Below, piece after piece: positions 4,870 through 51,901 of a DNA stretch of 58,831 bases. The notes below the pieces were generated by a model that was not told the DNA's origin, did not search any database, and was given only the letters and a program-made list of their open reading frames with translations. How positions within the stretch are numbered: position 1 is the first letter of the stretch; each line of letters begins with the position of its first letter. A program made the position numbers and the translations under genes. Source of the stretch: Acidimicrobiia bacterium (lineage in GTDB: Bacteria; Actinomycetota; Acidimicrobiia; Spongiisociales; ZC4RG35); the NCBI GenBank assembly GCA_026989215.1, contig JALSJV010000205.1, forward strand, positions 1 to 58,831, read 5' to 3'.

Positions 4870-4970
4870 GAAGAGTCCTCCGAGGTTCGAGGTGGCGCCC
4901 GGCGGCATCCCGGACGGGCGGCCCCGAGGTTAGGGGCGTTCACCCACTAGCGGAAATCGACCGGCCGTCG

Positions 4971-6065
4971 TCAACGGTGGGCGAGCCGATCGAGCTCGGC
5001 GGCAAGCACCTCGAGGAATCGCCGGTTCTCCTCGTCCGAGCCCACCGTGACCCGGACCCACCCCTTCGACAGCCCACGGATCACCACCCCGTGCCCCAAG
5101 AAGGTGTCGGCCGTCAGGGCGGTGTCCGGGCCGGGACGGAAGAACACGAAGTTGGTCTGGCTCGGCACGTACGGCACGCCGAGCTCGGCCAGGCCCCGCT
5201 CCAGGAGCTCCCGCCCGGCGCGATTGAGCTGCCGCCGCTCCGCCACCCGCTCGGGATGCCGGAGCGCCTCCACCGCCGCGACCTGGGCGAGGGAGTTCAC
5301 CGAGAACGGCGCTTGGGGGCGTCGCAACTCGGCGACCGTCTCCGCCTGTCCGACGACGTACCCGATTCGAAGGCCCGCCAACCCGTAGATCTTCGAGAGG
5401 GTCCGGGCGACCACCAGATTGGGGTGGTCACCCACCAGCCCGATCGCCGAGTGATGCCCCTCGGCGGTGACGTACTCGTGATAGGCCTCGTCGACCACGA
5501 CCAGCACATCGGACGGCACCCGGTCGACGAAACGGGCCACCTGGTCGGGGGCGAGCAACGTCCCCGTCGGGTTGTTCGGATTGCACAGGTACACGATCGT
5601 CGTGTCGTCTCGCAGGGCCGCGAGCATCGCCTCGGTGTCGTGCACCATGGCGTCGTCGAGGGGAACCTCGATCGGCTCGGACATCGCCAGGGTCGTGGCC
5701 AGTCGGTAGATCACGAACGACGGCCACCCATAGAGAGCCGACGTGCCCGGGCCGCCCACGGCCAGGGCCATGATCCGAAGGAGTTCCGAGGAACCGGCCC
5801 CCACCCAGATCTGGTCCGGCTCCACACCGAGATGGGCGGCGATCGCCTCCCGGGCCTCCCGGGCGTCGTTGTCCGGGTACCGGTGGATCGTACCGGCGGC
5901 GGCGGCCACCGCTGCTTGAACCTCGGGGAACGGCGGCAGAGGGCATTCGTTCGACGCCAGCTTGATGACGTCGGAGACGTCGAGCCCCCACTCGCGGGCG
6001 ACGTCGACGATCGACTTCCCGGGCCGGTAGGGGGGGATCTCTCGGAGGTCGGGCCGGATACGCAT
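4971..6065 (-). CDS. hisC: histidinol-phosphate aminotransferase
   Basis: C-terminal 364 aa of ORF 4971..6977: MRIRPDLREIPPYRPG..., NPNNPTG, and the PLP-lysine motif LSKIYGLAGLRIGY. ATG 6065 is in frame. The rest of the 668-aa ORF overlaps the next gene. Confidence 0.9.
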   Translation of the reverse strand: MRIRPDLREIPPYRPGKSIVDVAREWGLDVSDVIKLASNECPLPPFPEVQAAVAAAAGTIHRYPDNDAREAREAIAAHLGVEPDQIWVGAGSSELLRIMALAVGGPGTSALYGWPSFVIYRLATTLAMSEPIEVPLDDAMVHDTEAMLAALRDDTTIVYLCNPNNPTGTLLAPDQVARFVDRVPSDVLVVVDEAYHEYVTAEGHHSAIGLVGDHPNLVVARTLSKIYGLAGLRIGYVVGQAETVAELRRPQAPFSVNSLAQVAAVEALRHPERVAERRQLNRAGRELLERGLAELGVPYVPSQTNFVFFRPGPDTALTADTFLGHGVVIRGLSKGWVRVTVGSDEENRRFLEVLAAELDRLAHR

Positions 6066-23942: not shown

Positions 23943-24027
23943 GAGGCCGGTACCTTACTCCATGATTCCCGGGGGACGCCGCGGGAACGCCATCTTCTCT
24001 CGGCCTCCGGGAGACGGAGGGGTCATC

Positions 24028-24429
24028 TCAGGGCTCGTCGCCTGGGGCGGCACTCTCGATGACGGCCCGCAGGAGGTCTCGGATCGAGACGATTCCGAGG
24101 AGCTCGCCGTCCTCCATCACCGGGAGGTGCCGGTATCCGGATTCGAGGATCCAACGGGCGGCGTCGACGACGTCGGTCGACGGCGAGAAACTGTCCGGGT
24201 CACGTCCCATCCAGCGGGAGACGACCTCGGTCGTGGGGTCTCCACCGGCACCGATCGCCCGGACCAGATCCCGCTCCGTCACCACCCCGACCAGCCGACG
24301 CTTCTGGATGACGCCGAGGGAGCCGTGACCCGCCTCCGACATCGCCCGGGCGGCCTCGACGAGGGTGGTCTCCGGCCCGCAGATGTGCGGACGCCCCGAT
24401 ACCAGGTCGCCCAGGACGATCTTCGTCAT
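24028..24429 (-). CDS. CBS-pair domain protein
   Basis: C-terminal 133 aa of ORF 24028..25002 from ATG 24429 (MTKIVLGDLVS...). Two CBS repeats (GVVTERDLVRA, GIVSIRDLLRA). Confidence 0.8.
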   Translation of the reverse strand: MTKIVLGDLVSGRPHICGPETTLVEAARAMSEAGHGSLGVIQKRRLVGVVTERDLVRAIGAGGDPTTEVVSRWMGRDPDSFSPSTDVVDAARWILESGYRHLPVMEDGELLGIVSIRDLLRAVIESAAPGDEP

Positions 24430-29532: not shown

Positions 29533-29636
29533 CCACCCCCCTGGGTTCTTCGACACCGTGTCGACGAGCTTAGCCCCGTCGGTTCTCGGGACGCCTGACC
29601 CTGGTGATCGGCACGTTCTTCGCCTAGCTTGAGGCC

Positions 29637-39020: not shown

Positions 39021-39113
39021 GGAGGCGTCTGAGCGCCTGGTGGGCTCCGCGGTCTTCAAAACCGTTGAGGGGACGAGACGTCCCCTGGCGGGTTCGATTC
39101 CCGTCCGCCTCCG
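39021..39113 (+). tRNA. selC: tRNA-Sec (anticodon UCA)
   Basis: Manual fold. Acceptor GGAGGCG/CGCCTCC with discriminator G. Anticodon arm GCGGT-CUUCAAA-ACCGU (U33-UCA-A37). Long variable arm GGGGACG-AGA-CGUCCCC. T arm GGCGGG-UUCGAUU-CCCGUC. The acceptor plus T helix is 13 bp, as required for Sec tRNAs. Total length 93 nt. Confidence 0.8.
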
Positions 39114-44491: not shown

Positions 44492-45232
44492 TCAGCCCCG
44501 GGCGGCCATGGCGGCCCCGACGATGCCCGCCTGGTTGCCGAAGGCGGCCGGGACGATCTCGGTCTCGGCCTCGAGGTACGGACCGAACCGGTCCCATCGT
44601 CGGCTCACCCCACCTCCGATGACGATCAGCTCGGGGGAGAACAGCCGAACCAGATGCTCCAACACCCGGTTCACCCGGGACGCCCACTCCTCCCAGCCGA
44701 GGCGTCGCTCCTCGCGAACCCGGGCCGCCGCCCAATCCTCGACCGGTGCGTGGCCGTCCAGCTCCAGATGCCCGAGCTCGGTGTTGGGGACGAGGACCCC
44801 GTCGGTGAAGAGGGCGCTGCCGATCCCCGTCCCGAAGGTGAGCACCAGCACCACCCCACCCCTCCCCCGAGCGGCCCCGTGGGTGACCTCGGCGACCCCG
44901 GCGGCGTCGGCGTCGTTCACCACCGTGGTGGGCAGACCCGTCGCCGCGGCGAGGAGCGCCTCGGCGTCGGTCCCGATCCAGGCCGAGTCGATGTTGGCGG
45001 CGCTGCAGGCCACGCCCCCGCGAACCACCGCCGGCAGCGTACATCCGACCGGGCCCTCCCATCCGAACCAGGCGGCCATCTGGGCGACGGCGGCGGCGAC
45101 CTGCTCGGGGGTCGCGGGCCGGGGCGTCGGGATCTCGTGGCGATCCGCCAGGAGCCGCCCCCGGGTGACGTCGACGACGTTCCCCTTGATCCCCGACCCG
45201 CCGACGTCGATGCCGAGCACCCGGTCGGTCAT
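44492..45232 (-). CDS. ppgK: ROK-family polyphosphate/ATP glucokinase
   Basis: C-terminal 246 aa of ORF 44492..45937 from ATG 45232 (MTDRVLGIDVGGSGIKG). Contains the TFGTGIGSALF and GHLE motifs. Confidence 0.9.
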   Translation of the reverse strand: MTDRVLGIDVGGSGIKGNVVDVTRGRLLADRHEIPTPRPATPEQVAAAVAQMAAWFGWEGPVGCTLPAVVRGGVACSAANIDSAWIGTDAEALLAAATGLPTTVVNDADAAGVAEVTHGAARGRGGVVLVLTFGTGIGSALFTDGVLVPNTELGHLELDGHAPVEDWAAARVREERRLGWEEWASRVNRVLEHLVRLFSPELIVIGGGVSRRWDRFGPYLEAETEIVPAAFGNQAGIVGAAMAARG

Positions 45233-46683
45233 GCCGGCCTCCTCGGCGGTACGAAACCGGCACCGACCGTGTCGGCGATCGCCACCACCTCGCGATCGCC
45301 GTAGGCCCGACCCACGACCTGGACGCCCACCGGGAGCCCCCTCGCCGTCAGCCCGGCGGGGGCCACCGCCGCCGGCAGGTACGAGACGGTGGCGATCCCC
45401 GCCCAGAACAGCTGGTCCCAGTAGTCGCGGGTCTCGCCGTCGACGACGAGGGTGCGGCTCGACAGCTCGGAGTGGTCGTGGGCGAACGCCGGCAGTGGAG
45501 CGACCGGACAGACCAGCACGTCGTACCGGTCGAAAAACCCCTCCCACTGCGCTCGCAGCCGGTGACGTCGTTCGTCGAGCGCCAGCCAATGTCGGTGACG
45601 CTGGGCGACACCCTTGACGAGGAGGGCCGCGCGGCTGTCGTCGGTGGGATCGAGGGTCTCGACGGCGGCGTCGGCCGATCGACGAACCTCCGCCGGGAAC
45701 CCGGACGCCATCGTCCCGTACAGGAGCGGGAGATACAGCCGGTGCGACGCCGCCAGATCGGGAAGGCCGACGGGTTCCGTCTCGACCCTCGCCCCGGCCT
45801 CCTCCATCCGCCGAACCGTGGCGTCGAGCACCGCCGCCACCTCCCCGCCCACCGGGCACCGGGGATGGTCGAGCACCGCCGCCACCCGGAGGCCGCGGAG
45901 GGTGGCAAACCGAGGTGCGGGCAGCTCGACCCGCCATGCCCGGTCGTCGGGCTCGTCGGGCCCGACGAGGATGCCGAGCGCCAGCGCCAGGTCCCGCGCG
46001 CTCCGAGCGAGCGGTCCGGCCACGGCCAGATCGGCCCGGCTCCGGGTCCCGGGAGGGCCCGGGACGTGGCCCCGCAGCGAGACGACCCCGTAGCTCGGTT
46101 TGAGCCCGTAGACGCCGCAGCAGTGGGCCGGGTGGCGGATCGAGCCTCCGATGTCGCTCCCCACCTCGAGGGGAGTGAACCCGGCCGCGACCGCTGCCGC
46201 GGAGCCTCCACTGGAGCCTCCGGGCGTGAGCTCGGGATCCCAGGGGTTCGCCGTCGTGCCGTACACCTCGTTGTAGGTCTGGAGGTCGCCGGTGAACAGG
46301 GGGACGTTCGTCTTCCCGAACACGATGGCCCCCGCCCTTCGCAGCCGGGCCACCACCGTGGCGTCCCGTTCGGCACGGTTGCGGAGGAGGTCGGGCGAGC
46401 CCGAGGTGGTGACCAGGCCCTCCACGTCGAAGGCCTCCTTCACCGTCATCGGCAGACCGTGGAGCGGACCGGTCCAGTCTCGACGAGCGGCGGCGTCGTC
46501 CGCCCGACCGGCCGCCTCCCGTGCCCGTTCGAAGTCCCGCACCACGACGGCATTGATCACCGAGTCGTCACGTTCGATCCGTGAGATCAGGGTGTCGAGG
46601 AGCTCCCGGCTCGAGATCGTCCGCGCCCGGAGCGCGCCCAGGAGCTCGGTGGCATCGGCGACGGCTACCTCCACGCCCGTCAC
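45229..46683 (-). CDS. amidase (amidase-signature family)
   Basis: ORF 45229..46842, with the start set to GTG 46683 (VTGVEVAVADATELLG). AS motif GGSSGGSAAAVAAG...GSDIGGSIRHPA. ATGA overlap with ppgK. Confidence 0.85.
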   Translation of the reverse strand: MTGVEVAVADATELLGALRARTISSRELLDTLISRIERDDSVINAVVVRDFERAREAAGRADDAAARRDWTGPLHGLPMTVKEAFDVEGLVTTSGSPDLLRNRAERDATVVARLRRAGAIVFGKTNVPLFTGDLQTYNEVYGTTANPWDPELTPGGSSGGSAAAVAAGFTPLEVGSDIGGSIRHPAHCCGVYGLKPSYGVVSLRGHVPGPPGTRSRADLAVAGPLARSARDLALALGILVGPDEPDDRAWRVELPAPRFATLRGLRVAAVLDHPRCPVGGEVAAVLDATVRRMEEAGARVETEPVGLPDLAASHRLYLPLLYGTMASGFPAEVRRSADAAVETLDPTDDSRAALLVKGVAQRHRHWLALDERRHRLRAQWEGFFDRYDVLVCPVAPLPAFAHDHSELSSRTLVVDGETRDYWDQLFWAGIATVSYLPAAVAPAGLTARGLPVGVQVVGRAYGDREVVAIADTVGAGFVPPRRPA

Positions 46684-46721
46684 GCTAGCGCGCCGCCACC
46701 TCGGCTCCTGGAGGCCACCTT

Positions 46722-46774
46722 GCAACCCTGGGTTCCCAGGGGGAGCAGGATCCGCAACCCTGGGTTCCCAGGGG
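46722..46774. repeat. two 21-nt direct repeats GCAACCCTGGGTTCCCAGGGG (32-nt period)
   Basis: Copies at 46722-46742 and 46754-46774 in the amidase/gnd divergent spacer. Each contains ACCCTGGGT and can form a CCCTGG-GTTC-CCAGGG hairpin. Confidence 0.85.
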
Positions 46775-46832
46775 TGACGAGTCCCCCTCCGCACCCACGG
46801 AAGCGCAACGACCCCCGGTACCCTCCCCTCCG

Positions 46833-48263
46833 ATGGACACACGAGGGGACATCGGGATCGTCGGACTCGGGGTGATGGGCCGCAACCTCGCCCTCAACCT
46901 CGCAGACCACGGCTACACCGTGGCGGTCTACAACCGAACCGCAGCCCGCACCCGGGACTTCGTCGCCGACGACGTCGCCGGACGGCCGGTGATCCCCACC
47001 TTCGAACTGGAAGAGCTCGTCGCCACGCTCCGCGCCCCCCGCATCGTGCTGCTCATGGTGGCGGCGGGCCCGCCCGTCGACCGAGTCGTCGACGCCCTCA
47101 CCCCCCTCCTGGACGAGGGCGACATCATCATCGACGGTGGGAACTCCCTCTACACCGACACCATCCGCCGGGTCGGTGAGGCCGAACGTCGCGGGCTGAG
47201 ATATGTGGGAATGGGGATCTCCGGCGGTGAGGAGGGCGCCCGGTACGGTCCATCGATCATGCCCGGAGGAACCCCGAGCGCCTGGGCCCACATCAGGGAC
47301 ATGTTCCAGGCGATCGCCGCCAAGACACCCGACGGGACGCCGTGCTGTGACTGGGTGGGGCCGGACGGGTCGGGCCACTACGTGAAGATGGTGCACAACG
47401 GCATCGAGTACGGCGACATGCAGCTCATCGCCGAAGCGTACGACCTGATGAAGGCGTCGGGCATGACACCGGCGGAGATGGCCGACGTCTTCGAGGGATG
47501 GGGCCGCGGCGTCCTCGACTCCTACCTGATCGACATCACTGCCCGCATCCTCACGGTCACCGACCCCGACGGCGTGCCGGTTCTCGACCGGATCCTCGAC
47601 GCGGCCGGGCAGAAGGGGACCGGGAAGTGGACGGTGATCTCCTCGATGGAGCTCGGCCAACCCGTGACCCTCGTCGCCGAGGCGGTCTACGCCCGGATCG
47701 TCTCCTCGCTGGTCGACCAACGCCGGTACGCGGCGACGAAGCTCCCCGGCCCCGAACGTTCACTGCCGAAGATGACCGACGACATCCACGACGCCCTCTA
47801 CGCGTCGAAGATCGTCTCCTACGCCCAGGGGTTCATGCTCATGGCGGCGGCCTCGGCGGAGCACGACTGGGATCTCGACCTCGGTCGCATCGCCGAGCTC
47901 TGGAGGGCCGGGTGCATCATCCGCGCCCGGTTCCTCGACGACATCTCCGCCGCCTACCGACGCCGACCCACCCTTCCCAACCTCATGCTGGACGAGTTCT
48001 TCGCCTCGGCGCTCTCGGACGCCCAGAGCGGCTGGCGGCGGGTGGTGGCGGAGGCGGTGACCCGCGGGCTCCCCGTGCCTGCGTACGCCACCGCCCTGAC
48101 CTTCTACGACTCGTATCGATCGGAGCGGCTGCCCGCGAACCTCATCCAGGCACAACGCGACTTCTTCGGCGCCCACACCTACGAACGAATCGACCGTCCC
48201 CGAGGGGAGTTCTTTCACACCGAGTGGACGGCCCCCGAGCGGGAGCGCCATCCCAGGTCGTAG
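46833..48263 (+). CDS. gnd: NADP-dependent 6-phosphogluconate dehydrogenase (decarboxylating)
   Basis: ORF 46833..48263. IGIVGLGVMGRNLALN NADP loop and GHYVKMVHNGIEYGDMQLI. Confidence 0.95.
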   Translation: MDTRGDIGIVGLGVMGRNLALNLADHGYTVAVYNRTAARTRDFVADDVAGRPVIPTFELEELVATLRAPRIVLLMVAAGPPVDRVVDALTPLLDEGDIIIDGGNSLYTDTIRRVGEAERRGLRYVGMGISGGEEGARYGPSIMPGGTPSAWAHIRDMFQAIAAKTPDGTPCCDWVGPDGSGHYVKMVHNGIEYGDMQLIAEAYDLMKASGMTPAEMADVFEGWGRGVLDSYLIDITARILTVTDPDGVPVLDRILDAAGQKGTGKWTVISSMELGQPVTLVAEAVYARIVSSLVDQRRYAATKLPGPERSLPKMTDDIHDALYASKIVSYAQGFMLMAAASAEHDWDLDLGRIAELWRAGCIIRARFLDDISAAYRRRPTLPNLMLDEFFASALSDAQSGWRRVVAEAVTRGLPVPAYATALTFYDSYRSERLPANLIQAQRDFFGAHTYERIDRPRGEFFHTEWTAPERERHPRS

Positions 48264-48269
48264 ACGGCG

Positions 48270-49202
48270 TCACCCCTCGCTCGGGGTCCGAGCCTCGAGG
48301 AGTCGCCGGATGTCGTCGACGACCATGTCCGGGCGACCCACCAGCTCGGCCCAGGTCACCCGGACCACCACCCATCCGTGGGCGAGTGCCTCCCGGTCAC
48401 GTCGACGGTCCCGTTCGAAGTCCGCCCGCCGAGTGTGCCAGCGCCGGGAATCCCATTCGATGCCGACACCGGCACGCGGGTAGGCGGCGTCGAACCGACG
48501 GTGCGGCGCCCACGGGATCGGAAACTGGAGGTGCGGATGCGGCAGGCCGCCGCGGAGCAGCACCGACCGTCCCTTCCGCTCGATCACGGTGAAGGTCACC
48601 GCCGGGATCCCCGAGCGCTCGGCGAGCACCGTCTTGATGAGCGCCGAGCCTCGCTTGCCGCGCCGCGCCAGCTCGTCGGTGATCTCGGCGATGTCGGCGA
48701 CGCGTAGCCTGCGGGCGGCGATGAGCTCGTCCACGACCTGTTCGAACAGCCGTGGATGCAGGACGCCGGCGAGATCGAACACCGTCCGGATCAGCGTCGT
48801 CACCGGAAGGCCCGCCCGTCGTTCGATGTGATGTTCGGCGAGGTCACGGGTGCGATGGACCTTCACCCCGGGGAGACGGTGGGCGGCCGAGGCGTGGACG
48901 GTGACCGACACCGGCTCGGCAGGCACCATCGGGATCGCGTGGAGCTCGGCGGCCGACTGGTGCGAGACGACGGCACCCCGAAGACCGAGCACCGCACCCC
49001 ACAGCAGGGAGCGTCGATCGCCGGGCTCCACCAGCCGATAGGCGTCGCCCGGCTGCCGAACCCAGGCTCCGGTCCGGAGCCGGTACTTGATCTGATCGGG
49101 CGTGAATCCGAGGGCGAGCGCTTGGTCGCGACCGATGACCCCGCCCTGGGCGAAGGCAGTCTGCAAGATGTTGCGCTCGATGGCGATATGTGAACGTGAC
49201 AT
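48270..49202 (-). CDS. AbiEi-like N-terminal domain + DUF559 (Vsr/restriction-endonuclease-like) protein
   Basis: C-terminal 310 aa of ORF 48270..49685 from ATG 49202. The N-terminus GVIGRDQALALGFTPDQIKYRLRTGAW is antitoxin-like wHTH. The C-terminal region IEWDSRRWH...DRRRDREALAHGWVVVRVTW is DUF559-like. Confidence 0.75.
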   Translation of the reverse strand: MSRSHIAIERNILQTAFAQGGVIGRDQALALGFTPDQIKYRLRTGAWVRQPGDAYRLVEPGDRRSLLWGAVLGLRGAVVSHQSAAELHAIPMVPAEPVSVTVHASAAHRLPGVKVHRTRDLAEHHIERRAGLPVTTLIRTVFDLAGVLHPRLFEQVVDELIAARRLRVADIAEITDELARRGKRGSALIKTVLAERSGIPAVTFTVIERKGRSVLLRGGLPHPHLQFPIPWAPHRRFDAAYPRAGVGIEWDSRRWHTRRADFERDRRRDREALAHGWVVVRVTWAELVGRPDMVVDDIRRLLEARTPSEG

Positions 49203-49256
49203 GCGTCGATGATGCGGCACCGGTGTGACAGATCGTCGCGAGACGAGATTCGGCAC

Positions 49257-49311
49257 CGAACCCTGGGTCGTGGAGGGAAGTGACCACCCTTGGGAACCCT
49301 GGGTTCGCCGG
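49257..49311. repeat. pair of palindrome-cored boxes (CGAACCCTGGGTCG and GGGAACCCTGGGTTCGCCGG), 36 nt apart
   Basis: The second box contains the perfect 13-nt palindrome GAACCCTGGGTTC (49294-49306). The element aligns in reverse orientation with the 51-nt unit at 50557-50607. Confidence 0.8.
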
Positions 49312-49329
49312 TCGATCTCGGCGGTGATG

Positions 49330-50520
49330 TCATACCGGGGGCAGACCGTCCACCGGCACTGGCTCGCTCTCGTCCACCTCGTCCCGGCGAACGCCGAGCA
49401 GGAAGAGGATGGCATCGAGGTACGGCACCGAAAGCGAAGTGTCGGCAGCGTCCCGAGCCGCCGGCTTGGCGTTGAACGCCACGCCCAACCCTGCGGTGGC
49501 GAGCATCTCGACGTCGTTCGCCCCATCCCCGACCGCCACCACCTGATCGAGAGGAATCCCTTGCTCGGCCGCGACCTCCCGCAGGATGGCCGCCTTCCGC
49601 TCCCGATCCACCACCGGCCCGATGATCCGACCGGTGAGTCGCCCTCCTTCGATCTCCAACTCGTTGGCGACGGCCCGATCCACACCGAGGTCCTCGGCGA
49701 TCCGATCGACGAACACGCTGAAGCCGCCCGACACGATGGCGGTCTTCATGCCCATCCGCTGCAGCGTACGGATGAACGTCCGGGCTCCCGGAGTCAGCCG
49801 GATCCGCCGCCGAACCCGCTCGAGGGCCAGCTCGTCCAGACCCGCCAGGCGACGGACCCGCTCGGCGAGCGCCTCGGCGAAGTCGAGCTCGCCTGCCATC
49901 GCCCGGGCGGTGATCTCCGCCACCTCGGCTTCCACTCCGGCCTCCGCGGCCAGCAGGTCGATCACCTCGTCCTGGACGAGGGTCGAGTCGACGTCGAGCA
50001 CGACGAGCCGCTTCGCCCGGCGGGTCAGTCCCTCGGGCTGCACGGCCACGTCGACGCCGTGGTCGACGGCCACGGCGGACAGGTCGGCCCGGATGCGGAC
50101 CGGATCACCGCCCCGCACACCGATCTCGTAGGACACGACCGGGTAGCGGGAGAGGCGGGAGATCCGCTCGATGTTTCCGCCGGCGTCGGCGATGGCCTGA
50201 GCCACCGCCCCGAACGCCGCCGGGCCCACACCTGGCCCGATCACGGTGACCACCGTCTCCACGCCGCGTTCGGGCGGCGCGTCTTCGACGACCTCGAAAT
50301 CGATGTCGAGACCCGCCTGCCAGGCGTGGAACAGCAGGTTCTTGATGGTCGACCGACCCTCGGGCACGGCGATCAGCAGCCCCAGGGCCAGCCGACCGCG
50401 AACGACGACCTGCTCCACGTCGTAGAGCTCGACACCTTCGGCAGCGAGGACCTTCATCAACCCGGCGGTGATGCCGGGGCGGTCCATCCCACCGACACGA
50501 ACGAGGATCGTCTCGGCCAC
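49330..50520 (-). CDS. serB: phosphoserine phosphatase with two N-terminal ACT domains (SerB2 type)
   Basis: ORF 49330..50520. ACT-like repeats followed by HAD motifs VLDVDSTL, IVSGGF and GDGANDVEM. Confidence 0.9.
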   Translation of the reverse strand: MAETILVRVGGMDRPGITAGLMKVLAAEGVELYDVEQVVVRGRLALGLLIAVPEGRSTIKNLLFHAWQAGLDIDFEVVEDAPPERGVETVVTVIGPGVGPAAFGAVAQAIADAGGNIERISRLSRYPVVSYEIGVRGGDPVRIRADLSAVAVDHGVDVAVQPEGLTRRAKRLVVLDVDSTLVQDEVIDLLAAEAGVEAEVAEITARAMAGELDFAEALAERVRRLAGLDELALERVRRRIRLTPGARTFIRTLQRMGMKTAIVSGGFSVFVDRIAEDLGVDRAVANELEIEGGRLTGRIIGPVVDRERKAAILREVAAEQGIPLDQVVAVGDGANDVEMLATAGLGVAFNAKPAARDAADTSLSVPYLDAILFLLGVRRDEVDESEPVPVDGLPPV

Positions 50521-50556
50521 GGGGCCAGATTAGGGACCGCGTCTCTCACGAACGGA

Positions 50557-50676
50557 ACCCAGGGTCCCCGAAGGCACCCCCTCCCCCACCGAACCCAGGG
50601 TTGCCGGGTCGGCGACACGCCCCCGACCCAGGGTCCCCAAAGGCACCCCCTCCCCCACCGAACCCAGGGTTGCCGG
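50557..50676. repeat. tandem duplication of a 51-nt element (69-nt period), four ACCCAGGGT boxes
   Basis: Unit ACCCAGGGTCCCC[G/A]AAGGCACCCCCTCCCCCACCGAACCCAGGGTTGCCGG occurs twice (50/51 identical), separated by 18 nt. My base count and the ORF-track anchors disagree by 1 nt in this spacer, so I used the track-anchored coordinates (+/-1 nt). Confidence 0.85.
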
Positions 50677-50701
50677 AACGAGGGCCGCGTAACCTGGGGG
50701 C

Positions 50702-51901
50702 ATGTGCGACACCGTGGTGGTGCTCTCTCCCAAGGGCGTGCTGTTCGCCAAGAACAGCGACCGCGACCCCAACGAGGCGCAGATCGTCGAACGGCATCCG
50801 GCCGCCGACCATCCACCCGACTCCCTCGTCCGAGCCACCTGGATGGAGATCCCCCAGGCCCGCCACACCCACGCCGTCATCCTCTCCCGGCCGTTCTGGA
50901 TGTGGGGAGCCGAGATGGGAGCGAACGAGCACGGGGTCGTCGCCGGCAACGAGGCCGTCTTCACCGACCAGCCCTATGAAGAGATCGGCCTCACCGGGAT
51001 GGACCTGCTCCGGCTGGGCCTCGAACGGGGCCGGACCGCCACCGAGACGGTCTCGGTCATCATCGAGCTGCTCGAACGACACGGCCAAGGAGGGGGATGC
51101 GGACTGGAGCGTCCATCGTTCACCTACCACAACTCCTTCATCGTCGCCGACCCGGAACAGGCCTACGTCCTCGAGACGGCGGGCCGTCGATGGGCGACGG
51201 AAGAGGTCCGCACCGGGGTGAGATCGATCTCGAACGGCCTCACCATCCCCGGATTCGCCGAAACCCACTCCGATCGCGTCAAGACGAGGCTCTCCGCCTG
51301 TCGGGTCCGACGTGCCCGCACCGAGGCGAGCGCCGCCGAGGCCACCGGCCCCGCCGAGATGTTCTCGGTCCTCCGAGACCACGGCCCGACCCCGCGATAC
51401 CGTCTGCTCACCGGCGGAATGGACGCGCCCTGCATGCACGCCGGAGGCCTCGTCGCCTCCTCCCAGACGACCGCCTCCTGGGTCTCCGACCTGACATCGG
51501 GTCTGCACTGGGTCACCGGGACCGCCGCCCCGTGCACGGGGATCTTCAAGCCGGTCCGGGTGACCGAGCCCGTGGACCTCGGCCCCCCGCCCGACGACCG
51601 TTTCGACCCGAACACGGTGTGGTGGCGTCACGAACGCTTCCACCGGACGGTGATGCGGGACCCGGAAGCGGCGTTCCCCCGGTTCGAAGCCGAACGGGAC
51701 GAGGTTGAACGGGAATGGTTGGCCGACCCCCCGCCGACCGACGAGGCCTTCGAGATGGCCGAACGGCTCGCCCGCACCTGGCTCGACCGGATCGGCCAGG
51801 TCGAAGACCGACGACCCTGGTGGGTCCGACGCTACTGGGCGATCCGCGACCGGCGGGCCGGCCTCCCCGATGCCAAACGACCGGCCGTCGCCGACCGGTA
51901 G
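50702..51901 (+). CDS. Ntn-hydrolase, peptidase C69/secernin-like (N-terminal Cys nucleophile)
   Basis: ORF 50702..51901. Starts MCDTVVVL..AKNSDRDPNEAQ, the typical Met-Cys start of C69-type dipeptidases. Confidence 0.7.
   Translation: MCDTVVVLSPKGVLFAKNSDRDPNEAQIVERHPAADHPPDSLVRATWMEIPQARHTHAVILSRPFWMWGAEMGANEHGVVAGNEAVFTDQPYEEIGLTGMDLLRLGLERGRTATETVSVIIELLERHGQGGGCGLERPSFTYHNSFIVADPEQAYVLETAGRRWATEEVRTGVRSISNGLTIPGFAETHSDRVKTRLSACRVRRARTEASAAEATGPAEMFSVLRDHGPTPRYRLLTGGMDAPCMHAGGLVASSQTTASWVSDLTSGLHWVTGTAAPCTGIFKPVRVTEPVDLGPPPDDRFDPNTVWWRHERFHRTVMRDPEAAFPRFEAERDEVEREWLADPPPTDEAFEMAERLARTWLDRIGQVEDRRPWWVRRYWAIRDRRAGLPDAKRPAVADR

Follow-up and report, generated by a model that had tools for sequence, protein, structure and literature searches.

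Box-bounded palindromic units near gnd and serB in an Acidimicrobiia genome probably belong to a REP/REPIN-like repeat family

Introduction

The stretch of DNA analysed here, hereafter the window, is 58,831 nt long and comes from an Acidimicrobiia bacterium (assembly GCA_026989215.1, contig JALSJV010000205.1, positions 1 to 58,831). Around gnd and serB it carries eight copies of a short palindromic box, ACCCWGGGT (W, A or T), for which a first-pass annotation had offered two explanations: an operator array for a dimeric regulator, or an intergenic element family resembling repetitive extragenic palindromic (REP) sequences or miniature inverted-repeat transposable elements (MITEs). We have followed these boxes into other genomes and conclude that they are probably the conserved arms of a dispersed extragenic palindromic repeat family in Acidimicrobiia, similar to REPs and to REP doublets forming hairpins (REPINs), a reading to which we assign a probability of roughly two in three. 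REP/REPIN-type repeats are documented mainly in Proteobacteria.

Eight boxes in three spacers around gnd and serB

The genes at this locus encode, from left to right, an amidase, Gnd, a DUF559/MTES_1575-like protein, SerB and a C69-like protein (Table 1). The window is part of a 123-kb metagenome contig (ENA ERZ27262642), and the proteins nearest to its Gnd are labelled Ilumatobacter or Acidimicrobiia. The third gene had been named AbiEi/DUF559, and all that stands behind such a label is a sub-threshold Pfam match to MTES_1575 (27 bits against a cut-off of 38, E 4e-6). All eight exact boxes are intergenic and lie in three spacers spanning 4 kb, as first described, whereas dinucleotide-preserving shuffles of the window contain a mean of 0.56 and at most 3 copies. 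The three spacers had all been called promoter-bearing; this holds for two, which are divergent promoter spacers, while the third runs from the serB stop codon to the start of the next gene. The bare core CCCWGGG is at background level, with 29 copies in the window, 19 of them outside the three element-bearing spacers, and about 20 expected for the whole window. A weaker copy proposed at 29537-29548 is such a background-frequency 7-mer, a lone CCCTGGG by a start codon; it scores at most 13.5 bits with the covariance model described below and is no family member.

The longer palindrome GAACCCWGGGTTC is matched perfectly at a single site in the window, 49294-49306 (GAACCCTGGGTTC), which agrees with the first description of this copy. 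Of the matches elsewhere, five boxes have one mismatch and one has two; direct reading of the sequence gives two mismatches for the box at 50624-50636 (CGACCCAGGGTCC). A repeat search recovered the other reported regularities as well, namely a 21-nt direct repeat with a 32-nt period (46722-46742 and 46754-46774, 100% identity), box spacings of 36, 33 and 36 nt within the serB/C69 spacer, and unit interiors that can be aligned among all three spacers. It also delimited a tandem duplication with a 69-nt period, in which 50557-50607 and 50626-50676 are 98% identical. A decayed third box, ACCCACGGA (46793-46801), lies exactly 36 nt past the box at 46757, so the gnd spacer also contains a standard 36-nt unit. 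The first copy of the 21-nt repeat is probably a local 32-nt duplication of the next; a spacing of 32 nt occurs 0 times among neighbouring boxes of other Actinomycetota loci.

The window holds four units, A to D, of one species-specific variant without an inner hairpin, plus one extra duplicated box. These units keep the 36-nt spacing of the family described below, with direct centres (AA type), and they have in common a private C-rich interior (TCCCCRAAGG..CCCCCTCC..) that is unable to form an inner hairpin. Their folds are weak (z +0.1 to -2.75); unit C gives a weak hairpin (z -1.4 to -1.9) and unit A no stable fold on the plus strand. Unit C, when read on the minus strand, has the orientation of units A and B and is 71% complementary to unit A; for the stretch 46757-46807 at unit D, identity to unit A is 63%. 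Identical elements are present in a second assembly of this species. The minus strand of units A and B (50548-50680) is very G-rich, with GGTGGGGGAGGGGGTGCCTTCGGGGACCCTGGG present twice, and could form G-quadruplexes upstream of serB.

Table 1. Positions of boxes, units, model hits, genes and other features in the window
Feature	Positions	Strand	Details
ACCCWGGGT, eight exact copies	46725, 46757, 49260, 49296, 50557, 50593, 50626, 50662 (starts)		
First 21-nt repeat copy	46722-46742	.	GCAACCCTGGGTTCCCAGGGG; box CAACCCTGGGTTC (46723-46735) overlapping half-box CCCAGGG (46735-41)
Unit D	46757-46801	+	Box ACCCTGGGT (46757-65), 27-nt interior TCCCAGGGGTGACGAGTCCCCCTCCGC, decayed box ACCCACGGA at 36-nt spacing
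Unit C	49258-49306	-	Boxes GAACCCTGGGTCG (49258-70) and perfect palindrome GAACCCTGGGTTC (49294-49306), 36 nt apart
Unit A	50555-50603	+	Boxes GAACCCAGGGTCC and GAACCCAGGGTTG, 36 nt apart; C-rich interior CCCCGAAGGCACCCCCTCCCCCACCG, inner hairpin impossible
Unit B	50624-50672	+	Tandem copy of unit A, 69-nt period, 98% identical
Model hit, unit C	49252-49312		46.5 bits, E 6e-12; best window match
Model hit, gnd spacer (unit D)	46717-46773		40.6 bits, E 4e-10
Model hit, unit A	50549-50609		32.9 bits, E 9e-8
Model hit, unit B	50618-50678		29.2 bits, E 1e-6
Amidase gene	45229-46683	-	
gnd	46833-48263	+	
DUF559/MTES_1575-like gene	48270-49202	-	310 aa; weak nuclease-type domain
serB	49330-50520	-	
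C69-like gene	50702-51901	+	
-10-like TACCCT	46819-46824		Before gnd
-10-like TAATCT	50527-50532	-	Before serB; TATCCT in relatives
-10-like TAACCT	50690-50695	+	6 nt before the C69-like ATG; TAGCCT in L123 and L124
Amidase/gnd spacer stretch without counterpart in relatives	46691-46813		Contains the repeat pair and unit D
gnd-serB stretch without counterpart in relatives	48231-49329		DUF559/MTES_1575-like gene and unit C
serB/C69 spacer stretch without counterpart in relatives	50536-50684		149 nt against 59 nt in L123; units A and B
tRNA-Sec gene	39021-39112	+	Rfam tRNA-Sec, 73 bits

A box-bounded family in Acidimicrobiia genomes

A pattern scan for two boxes at a limited distance (AACCCWGGGT-N18-30-AACCCWGGGT) over 185,579 species genomes, one genome per species, matched at least 120 loci. 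Among those listed, 93 come from approximately 45 metagenome-assembled genomes (MAGs) labelled Acidimicrobiia, Acidimicrobiaceae, Actinomycetota or Actinomycetes, and a single MAG contributes up to 9 of the matches listed. The other 27 are scattered over phyla with no preferred spacing, and a rough estimate gives about 28 expected by chance. In the actinobacterial loci, by contrast, the distance between neighbouring boxes is 36 nt in 93 of 145 cases (64%) and 35 to 37 nt in 119 of 145. Three to 6 boxes are present at 32 of 95 sites, often as arrays with an exact 36-nt period and an array-specific interior (L035, L042, L082, L097, L104 and L114; L numbers are the labels of the loci examined). 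The box is invariant across the class while the surrounding sequence varies.

From these loci a covariance model (R1) was made with 83 units, none of them from the window, and it was run unfiltered over the window. It hit all four window units (Table 1), at 29 to 46 bits compared to 55 to 75 bits for typical copies; the window copies are worn or variant members of the family. No match above 13.5 bits was present elsewhere in the window or in 38 kb from L122, L123 and L124, the closest relatives found with a syntenic region. Outside the original ascertainment the model gave approximately 4 hits in 673 kb, suggesting tens of copies per genome rather than the hundreds, with target-site duplications, that the first-pass annotation had described for a mobile family.

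The family appears to be undescribed in Rfam 15 and in the searchable literature, in line with the earlier failure to match the boxes to any named motif. At the gathering threshold, Rfam 15 returned nothing relevant for the window; within the region, searched with E up to 10, the top match reached 18.5 bits where the gathering score is 60. For eight loci carrying typical copies (E up to 1), the only matches were microRNAs at chance level. The box sequence was met in the searchable literature only as part of unrelated primers and genes of eukaryotes, and we found no paper there that links Acidimicrobiia with intergenic palindromic repeats, or REP with RAYT transposases and Actinobacteria. In one Acidimicrobiia MAG (DATFGI01; L038 1-238, 638-892 and 1323-1439), a group I intron-like match of 37.7 bits, under the gathering score of 50, lies between a stretch matched by 23S rRNA and a 5S rRNA gene.

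The window-type unit had no match in JGI metagenomes. Carriage by phages was considered and rejected, the 27 matches on viral contigs being almost all low-G+C tandem repeats. One IMG/VR contig filed as viral (L149; 111 kb, 70% G+C) has at 4927-4971 a window-like unit, AACCCAGGGTTGCCGG..CCCTCC..CAACCCAGGGTTGCAAGG; it probably comes from a host that is related to the window organism and bears a provirus.

The typical unit is a near-perfect palindrome

In the listed units, the typical copy is a near-perfect palindrome of approximately 50 nt that consists of a box, a variable inner hairpin and a second box. Its order is (G)CGAACCCAGGGTTC, 2 to 3 unpaired nucleotides, an inner stem of 6 to 9 bp with a 3-nt loop, again 2 to 3 unpaired nucleotides, and GAACCCTGGGTTCG(C); each box is a 13-nt palindrome, and the box centres are exactly 36 nt apart. 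The inner stem differs in sequence between genomes with its pairing kept. Seven copies of one MAG read AGCGTCGC-TGA-GCGACGCT, while the stems of other MAGs read GCCCCGC..GCGGGGC, GACCGCC..GGCGGTC or TACCTTCG..CGAAGT.

Pairs were counted in an ungapped alignment of 86 sequences with a symmetric structure. Standard pairs are formed in 83.8% of cells, compared to 73.9% after shuffling and 25 to 49% with the partners slid. The covariation score is 0.261, against 0.111 for shuffled alignments (the observed value was reached by 0 of 500) and 0.055 to 0.071 with slid partners, and the inner-stem pairs comprise up to six standard pair types. The box columns are fixed by the search pattern and therefore uninformative, so that the covariation is contributed by the inner-stem and flanking pairs. 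A DNA palindrome that arises by inverted duplication would give the same covariation without selection at the RNA level. As DNA, typical copies fold with -28 to -32 kcal/mol (z about -9), and isolated doublets are complementary, including the central W, in 36 of 49 cases (p = 0.0014).

Interior identity and filled and empty sites

Interiors from different loci of one MAG are on average 76% identical, with 48% of pairs at 80% or above, compared to a mean of 47% and 1% of pairs at that level between MAGs; the boxes therefore carry the interior with them. Some sites are retained across species-level MAGs, as in L016/L037 (85% nucleotide identity, two sites), L089/L105 (94%), L068/L073, L050/L074 and L009/L114, the last with 3 versus 4 boxes. 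Other sites have a unit in one genome and lack it in another. The clearest case is L066, where a CAP-domain gene is separated from its convergent neighbour by a spacer of 70 nt that contains a 51-nt palindrome. The same spacer is empty in L153, L157 and L158, measuring 1 to 5 nt; in these relatives, with protein identities of 91%, 80% and 78%, the sequence is TAG-g-TCA, TAG-c-TCA and TAA-agctg-TCA, and one of the MAGs with an empty site has the family at another place (L012). The L066 unit is an insertion. At this sole resolved insertion no target-site duplication was found (TAA-tcctc-[unit]-aaataggagcgggt-TCA compared to TAGcTCA). Further filled/empty pairs are L006/L077, L042/L021 and L018 versus the window near position 24000. 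At that last site the window has an ordinary small hairpin after a CBS-domain gene (CCTCCGtctccCGGAGG; 23990-24060, minus-strand reading), and the L018 ortholog is followed by a typical unit.

The window sites are empty in the closest relatives too. L122 to L124 have 74 to 80% Gnd identity and a conserved gene order (malic enzyme, hflX, ROK, amidase, gnd, serB, C69-like, M1 peptidase, rplL), and no boxes are present in their orthologous amidase/gnd, gnd/serB and serB/C69 spacers. It is precisely in the stretches surrounding the boxes that nucleotide homology is lost (46690-46813, 48231-49329 and 50536-50684). On the amidase side homology ends at 46689-46690 for L122 and L123 and restarts at 46814 in L123 or 46848 in L122, whose box-free amidase/gnd spacer measures 42 nt. 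The gnd and serB genes of L123 and L124 directly converge, with 15 and 51 nt between them, so the DUF559-like gene and unit C are extra in the window. Between serB and the C69-like gene, the homology blocks stop at 50535 and restart at 50685. A single perfect box in L122 at 737 (GAACCCTGGGTTC) was dismissed as a chance match and no element, as it lies within a conserved 41-codon membrane open reading frame (ORF). This ORF, of approximately 40 codons and with a hydrophobic product, is conserved between the malic-enzyme gene and a 96-aa gene (L001 4640-4765, L122 730-855, L123 136-258).

The three window sites may go back to a single arrival, possibly together with the DUF559-like gene, and to later duplication or recombination inside the 4-kb block instead of three independent transpositions. 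Such a history would account for the single private interior type with its graded similarity to unit A (98% in B, 71% in C, 63% in D), for the restriction of all copies to 4 kb with no other match in the window, and for the 69-nt and 32-nt duplications. The absence of the private unit type from the JGI metagenomes fits as well, as does the finding that the DUF559-like gene beside unit C is itself inserted relative to the relatives. However, intact syntenic gnd and serB separate the sites, which simple tandem duplication cannot place, no DUF559 homologue lies near elements in other loci, and the evidence comes from about half of the 123-kb contig. We regard a single arrival as a possibility with the odds somewhat against it.

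The DUF559-like gene was also considered as a mechanism for the elements. CCWGG, the Dcm/Vsr site, lies within the box core, and the DUF559 domain is Vsr-like. This candidate was rejected: it has no homologue near elements in other loci, and CCCWGGG is not avoided in the window.

Placement relative to genes

Genes in the loci were called from the periodicity of G+C at third codon positions (GC3) and from ORF limits, which makes stops reliable and starts not. At the 95 sites in Actinomycetota loci, paired units are essentially never within genes, with 84% of the sampled DNA being coding, and single boxes occur within genes at about chance frequency. Among 85 classified sites, 49 are in tandem, 22 (26%) in convergent and 14 (approximately 16%) in divergent spacers. 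An enrichment in convergent spacers was suspected and disappeared against the baseline of 426 other spacers of the same loci (63/20/17% tandem/convergent/divergent; chi-square p = 0.42). Within these spacers, the distance to the facing stop codon is clustered at 2 to 23 nt. A unit between convergent genes often takes up the entire gap, for example leaving 7 and 5 nt in L022, and the orientation of the loop is independent of the direction of the upstream gene. In the window, unit C is in this usual place after a stop codon, 23 nt past that of serB and 55 nt ahead of the start of the DUF559-like gene.

The narrow placement at stop codons brings to mind the TRIT hairpins of mycobacteria, 147 conserved palindromic hairpins that are Mycobacterium-restricted and located narrowly at stop codons, with a binding factor proposed (Gardner et al. 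2011, PMC3152330). Under a comparable 3'-end role, the palindromes would end or stabilise transcripts in both directions, a host factor would bind the box as double-stranded RNA or DNA, and selection and gene conversion, not transposition, would account for spread and homogeneity. Such a role is possible together with a mobile origin, by co-option, and to that extent overlaps the REP/REPIN-like reading. The facing stop at 2 to 23 nt at most sites, including unit C, and the filled convergent gaps are what it predicts, and the hairpins are very stable and symmetric, with a loop orientation that does not follow the genes. The published precedent in one actinobacterial genus (PMC3152330) and the unrelated small hairpin that the window has after the CBS-domain gene, where L018 has a unit, also favour it. 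Yet there is no U-tract after the hairpin (T makes up 18% of the following 20 nt, and 9 of 45 tandem sites have TTT), and a consensus scan of 46600-50800 found no terminator-like site; according to PMC3993855, mycobacterial RNA polymerase needs a U-tract. A plain intrinsic terminator was rejected on the same grounds, hairpin and stop proximity being present and the U-tract absent. Furthermore, the approximately 16% of sites in divergent spacers, where there is nothing to terminate, match the 17% baseline, two of the three window sites are divergent and have lost the inner hairpin, and terminators would hardly call for arrays of up to 6 boxes. The insertion in one lineage into a 1-nt convergent spacer (L066) resembles arrival and not need. 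Taken together, a TRIT-like role as the explanation of the family is unlikely.

Going by the published description of TRIT, the two families are alike in being actinobacterial, lineage-restricted palindromic hairpins of conserved sequence, present in many copies, bidirectional by symmetry and placed very narrowly at stops, for which a sequence-specific binding factor is suggested. They differ in that TRIT sits at about position -8, overlapping the end of the coding sequence, in Mycobacterium only, whereas the units described here lie a few nt past the stop in Acidimicrobiia and occur in divergent spacers and arrays as well.

Putative core promoters beside the window units

TANNNT hexamers are present 6 to 8 nt upstream of the gnd, C69-like and serB starts and are conserved in L123 and L124. 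This pattern suggests that the three transcripts are leaderless and that the putative core promoters flank the inserts and are intact; a consensus promoter scan found no promoter-like site for these genes. Units A and B lie between the two conserved -10-like hexamers of serB and the C69-like gene, and unit D lies 18 nt upstream of that of gnd. Box centres are at -41 from the serB start, at -36 from the C69-like start (the final box of unit B) and, for the decayed box, at -36 from the gnd start.

These are positions at which activators or repressors act, and together with a 13-bp palindrome whose central W is free, a shape classic for dimer sites, and a box that is invariant across the class amid changing surroundings, they speak for an operator array. 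In this alternative, a dimeric transcription factor or nucleoid protein would bind the palindromes cooperatively over 36 nt and co-regulate gnd, serB, the C69-like and the DUF559-like genes. The wider data are against it. The same promoters have no box in three relatives with conserved gene order, an outcome that the first-pass annotation itself had said would argue against a regulatory role. The 26% of family sites in convergent spacers have no promoter, and most sites abut stops. Neighbouring genes are functionally incoherent: proteins of the start-facing genes (76) and of the end-facing genes (81) each fall into 124 Pfam families, with at most 3 proteins per family. The interiors are co-amplified with the boxes, which selection for binding sites does not predict, and in the remaining 55 kb of the window the model gives no additional site. 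Insertion between back-to-back core promoters is enough to explain the -36 and -41 positions. The operator array, one of the two explanations originally offered, is thus very improbable.

A LexA site was examined separately. The SOS box of Gram-positive bacteria and Actinobacteria is CGAAC-N4-GTTCG (Cheo box), and the extended family box, CGAAC-CCWGG-GTTCG, has the same outer half-sites. It was rejected: the family box is GAAC-N5-GTTC and not N4, and the sites lie after stops, beside unrelated genes.

Elsewhere in the window there is a tRNA-Sec gene (Table 1), so this Acidimicrobiia genome probably uses selenoproteins.

Discussion

Of the two original explanations, the intergenic repeat family is the one that the data favour: it is found in approximately 45 MAGs, is extragenic, forms hairpins and tandem arrays, is homogeneous within genomes and has filled and empty sites. 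The data show that units are copied within a genome with the interior carried along with the boxes, and that they land in any type of intergenic spacer, where most of those that survive abut the stop codon of the gene upstream. They also form tandem arrays of 36-nt period and are gained and lost at orthologous sites. The class-wide invariant box may be the recognition site of a protein that moves or maintains the units, by analogy with the REP stem and RAYT. The hairpins at gene ends, as DNA or RNA, may incidentally stabilise or end transcripts. For the window, insertion would have taken place where it was least harmful, and any effect on gnd, serB or the peptidase gene would be a by-product of insertion and not part of a designed regulon.

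REPINs are described as extragenic and over-represented, as hairpin-forming inverted doublets of fixed distance, and as having random extragenic spread and ordered tandem clusters (PMC3116915). The likeness to the REP/REPIN sequences of Proteobacteria (Bertels & Rainey 2011, PMC3116915; E. coli BIME arrays) covers most of these properties: both are short, over-represented and extragenic only, both consist of inverted doublets at a fixed distance that give a long hairpin with a less conserved spacer, and both spread over extragenic space in proportion to its availability and form ordered tandem clusters. Both also have within-genome populations that differ between genomes, and orthologous persistence alongside gain and loss. 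The family differs in its Acidimicrobiia host, for which the searchable literature contains no REP report, and in its box-centre distance of 36 nt compared to 71 and 110 bp in P. fluorescens.

Several observations weigh against the REP/REPIN-like reading. Each arm is itself a perfect 13-nt palindrome, unlike the imperfect stems of classical REPs, and the copy number is apparently tens compared to the hundreds of those elements. The window copies are atypical, with direct AA centres, no inner hairpin and weak folds. Their three sites are crowded into 4 kb while the other 55 kb has none, a pattern for which local duplication is as good an explanation as transposition. A host protein may bind the box. 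The gene calls, based on GC3 periodicity, are crude, and the start-side distances are unreliable.

The mobiliser is a further difficulty. A cognate RAYT transposase (HUH Y1) gene, single-copy and flanked by the repeats, is a defining feature of REP/REPIN systems that did not turn up here. A tblastn search with RAYT and IS608 TnpA queries over approximately 0.95 Mb of loci gave no match below E 0.4, a weak test for the absence of a RAYT since these genes are single-copy and only sampled loci were searched. No transposase is among the 25 most frequent Pfam families of 157 flanking proteins, nor among six tested genes between or beside two elements.

MITEs such as Correia elements offer another comparison. 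They are usually 100 to 400 bp long, with terminal inverted repeats derived from insertion sequences and with target-site duplications. Like the present family they are small, non-autonomous and intergenic, have palindromic ends and presence/absence polymorphism, and can bring promoters or terminators. The family unit has inverted-repeat ends too; in contrast to MITEs, it is approximately 50 nt long and shows no duplication at the one resolved insertion.

A bolder proposal is that the invariant 13-bp palindrome is read by a vertically inherited, non-RAYT protein of Acidimicrobiia that both propagates the hairpins and uses them, for example as sequence-specific, U-tract-independent terminators or 3'-end markers like those once suggested for TRIT. 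We consider this quite unlikely; if true, high-G+C actinobacteria would have an end-of-gene signal that is defined by sequence, depends on a protein and resides on an element able to spread itself.

The boxes should not be annotated as a regulon signal; promoter motif discovery in Acidimicrobiia would otherwise yield a false regulator of gnd, serB and peptidase genes. The family may also be of use as a marker for strain typing and for breaks in MAG assemblies. REPIN-like population behaviour in an actinobacterial class rich in uncultured members would widen the known range of such elements. With an arm that is invariant over approximately 45 species-level genomes and an interior that co-varies, the question becomes which protein reads GAACCCWGGGTTC. 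Should the hairpins mark transcript ends, the family would bear on U-tract-less termination in high-G+C actinobacteria.

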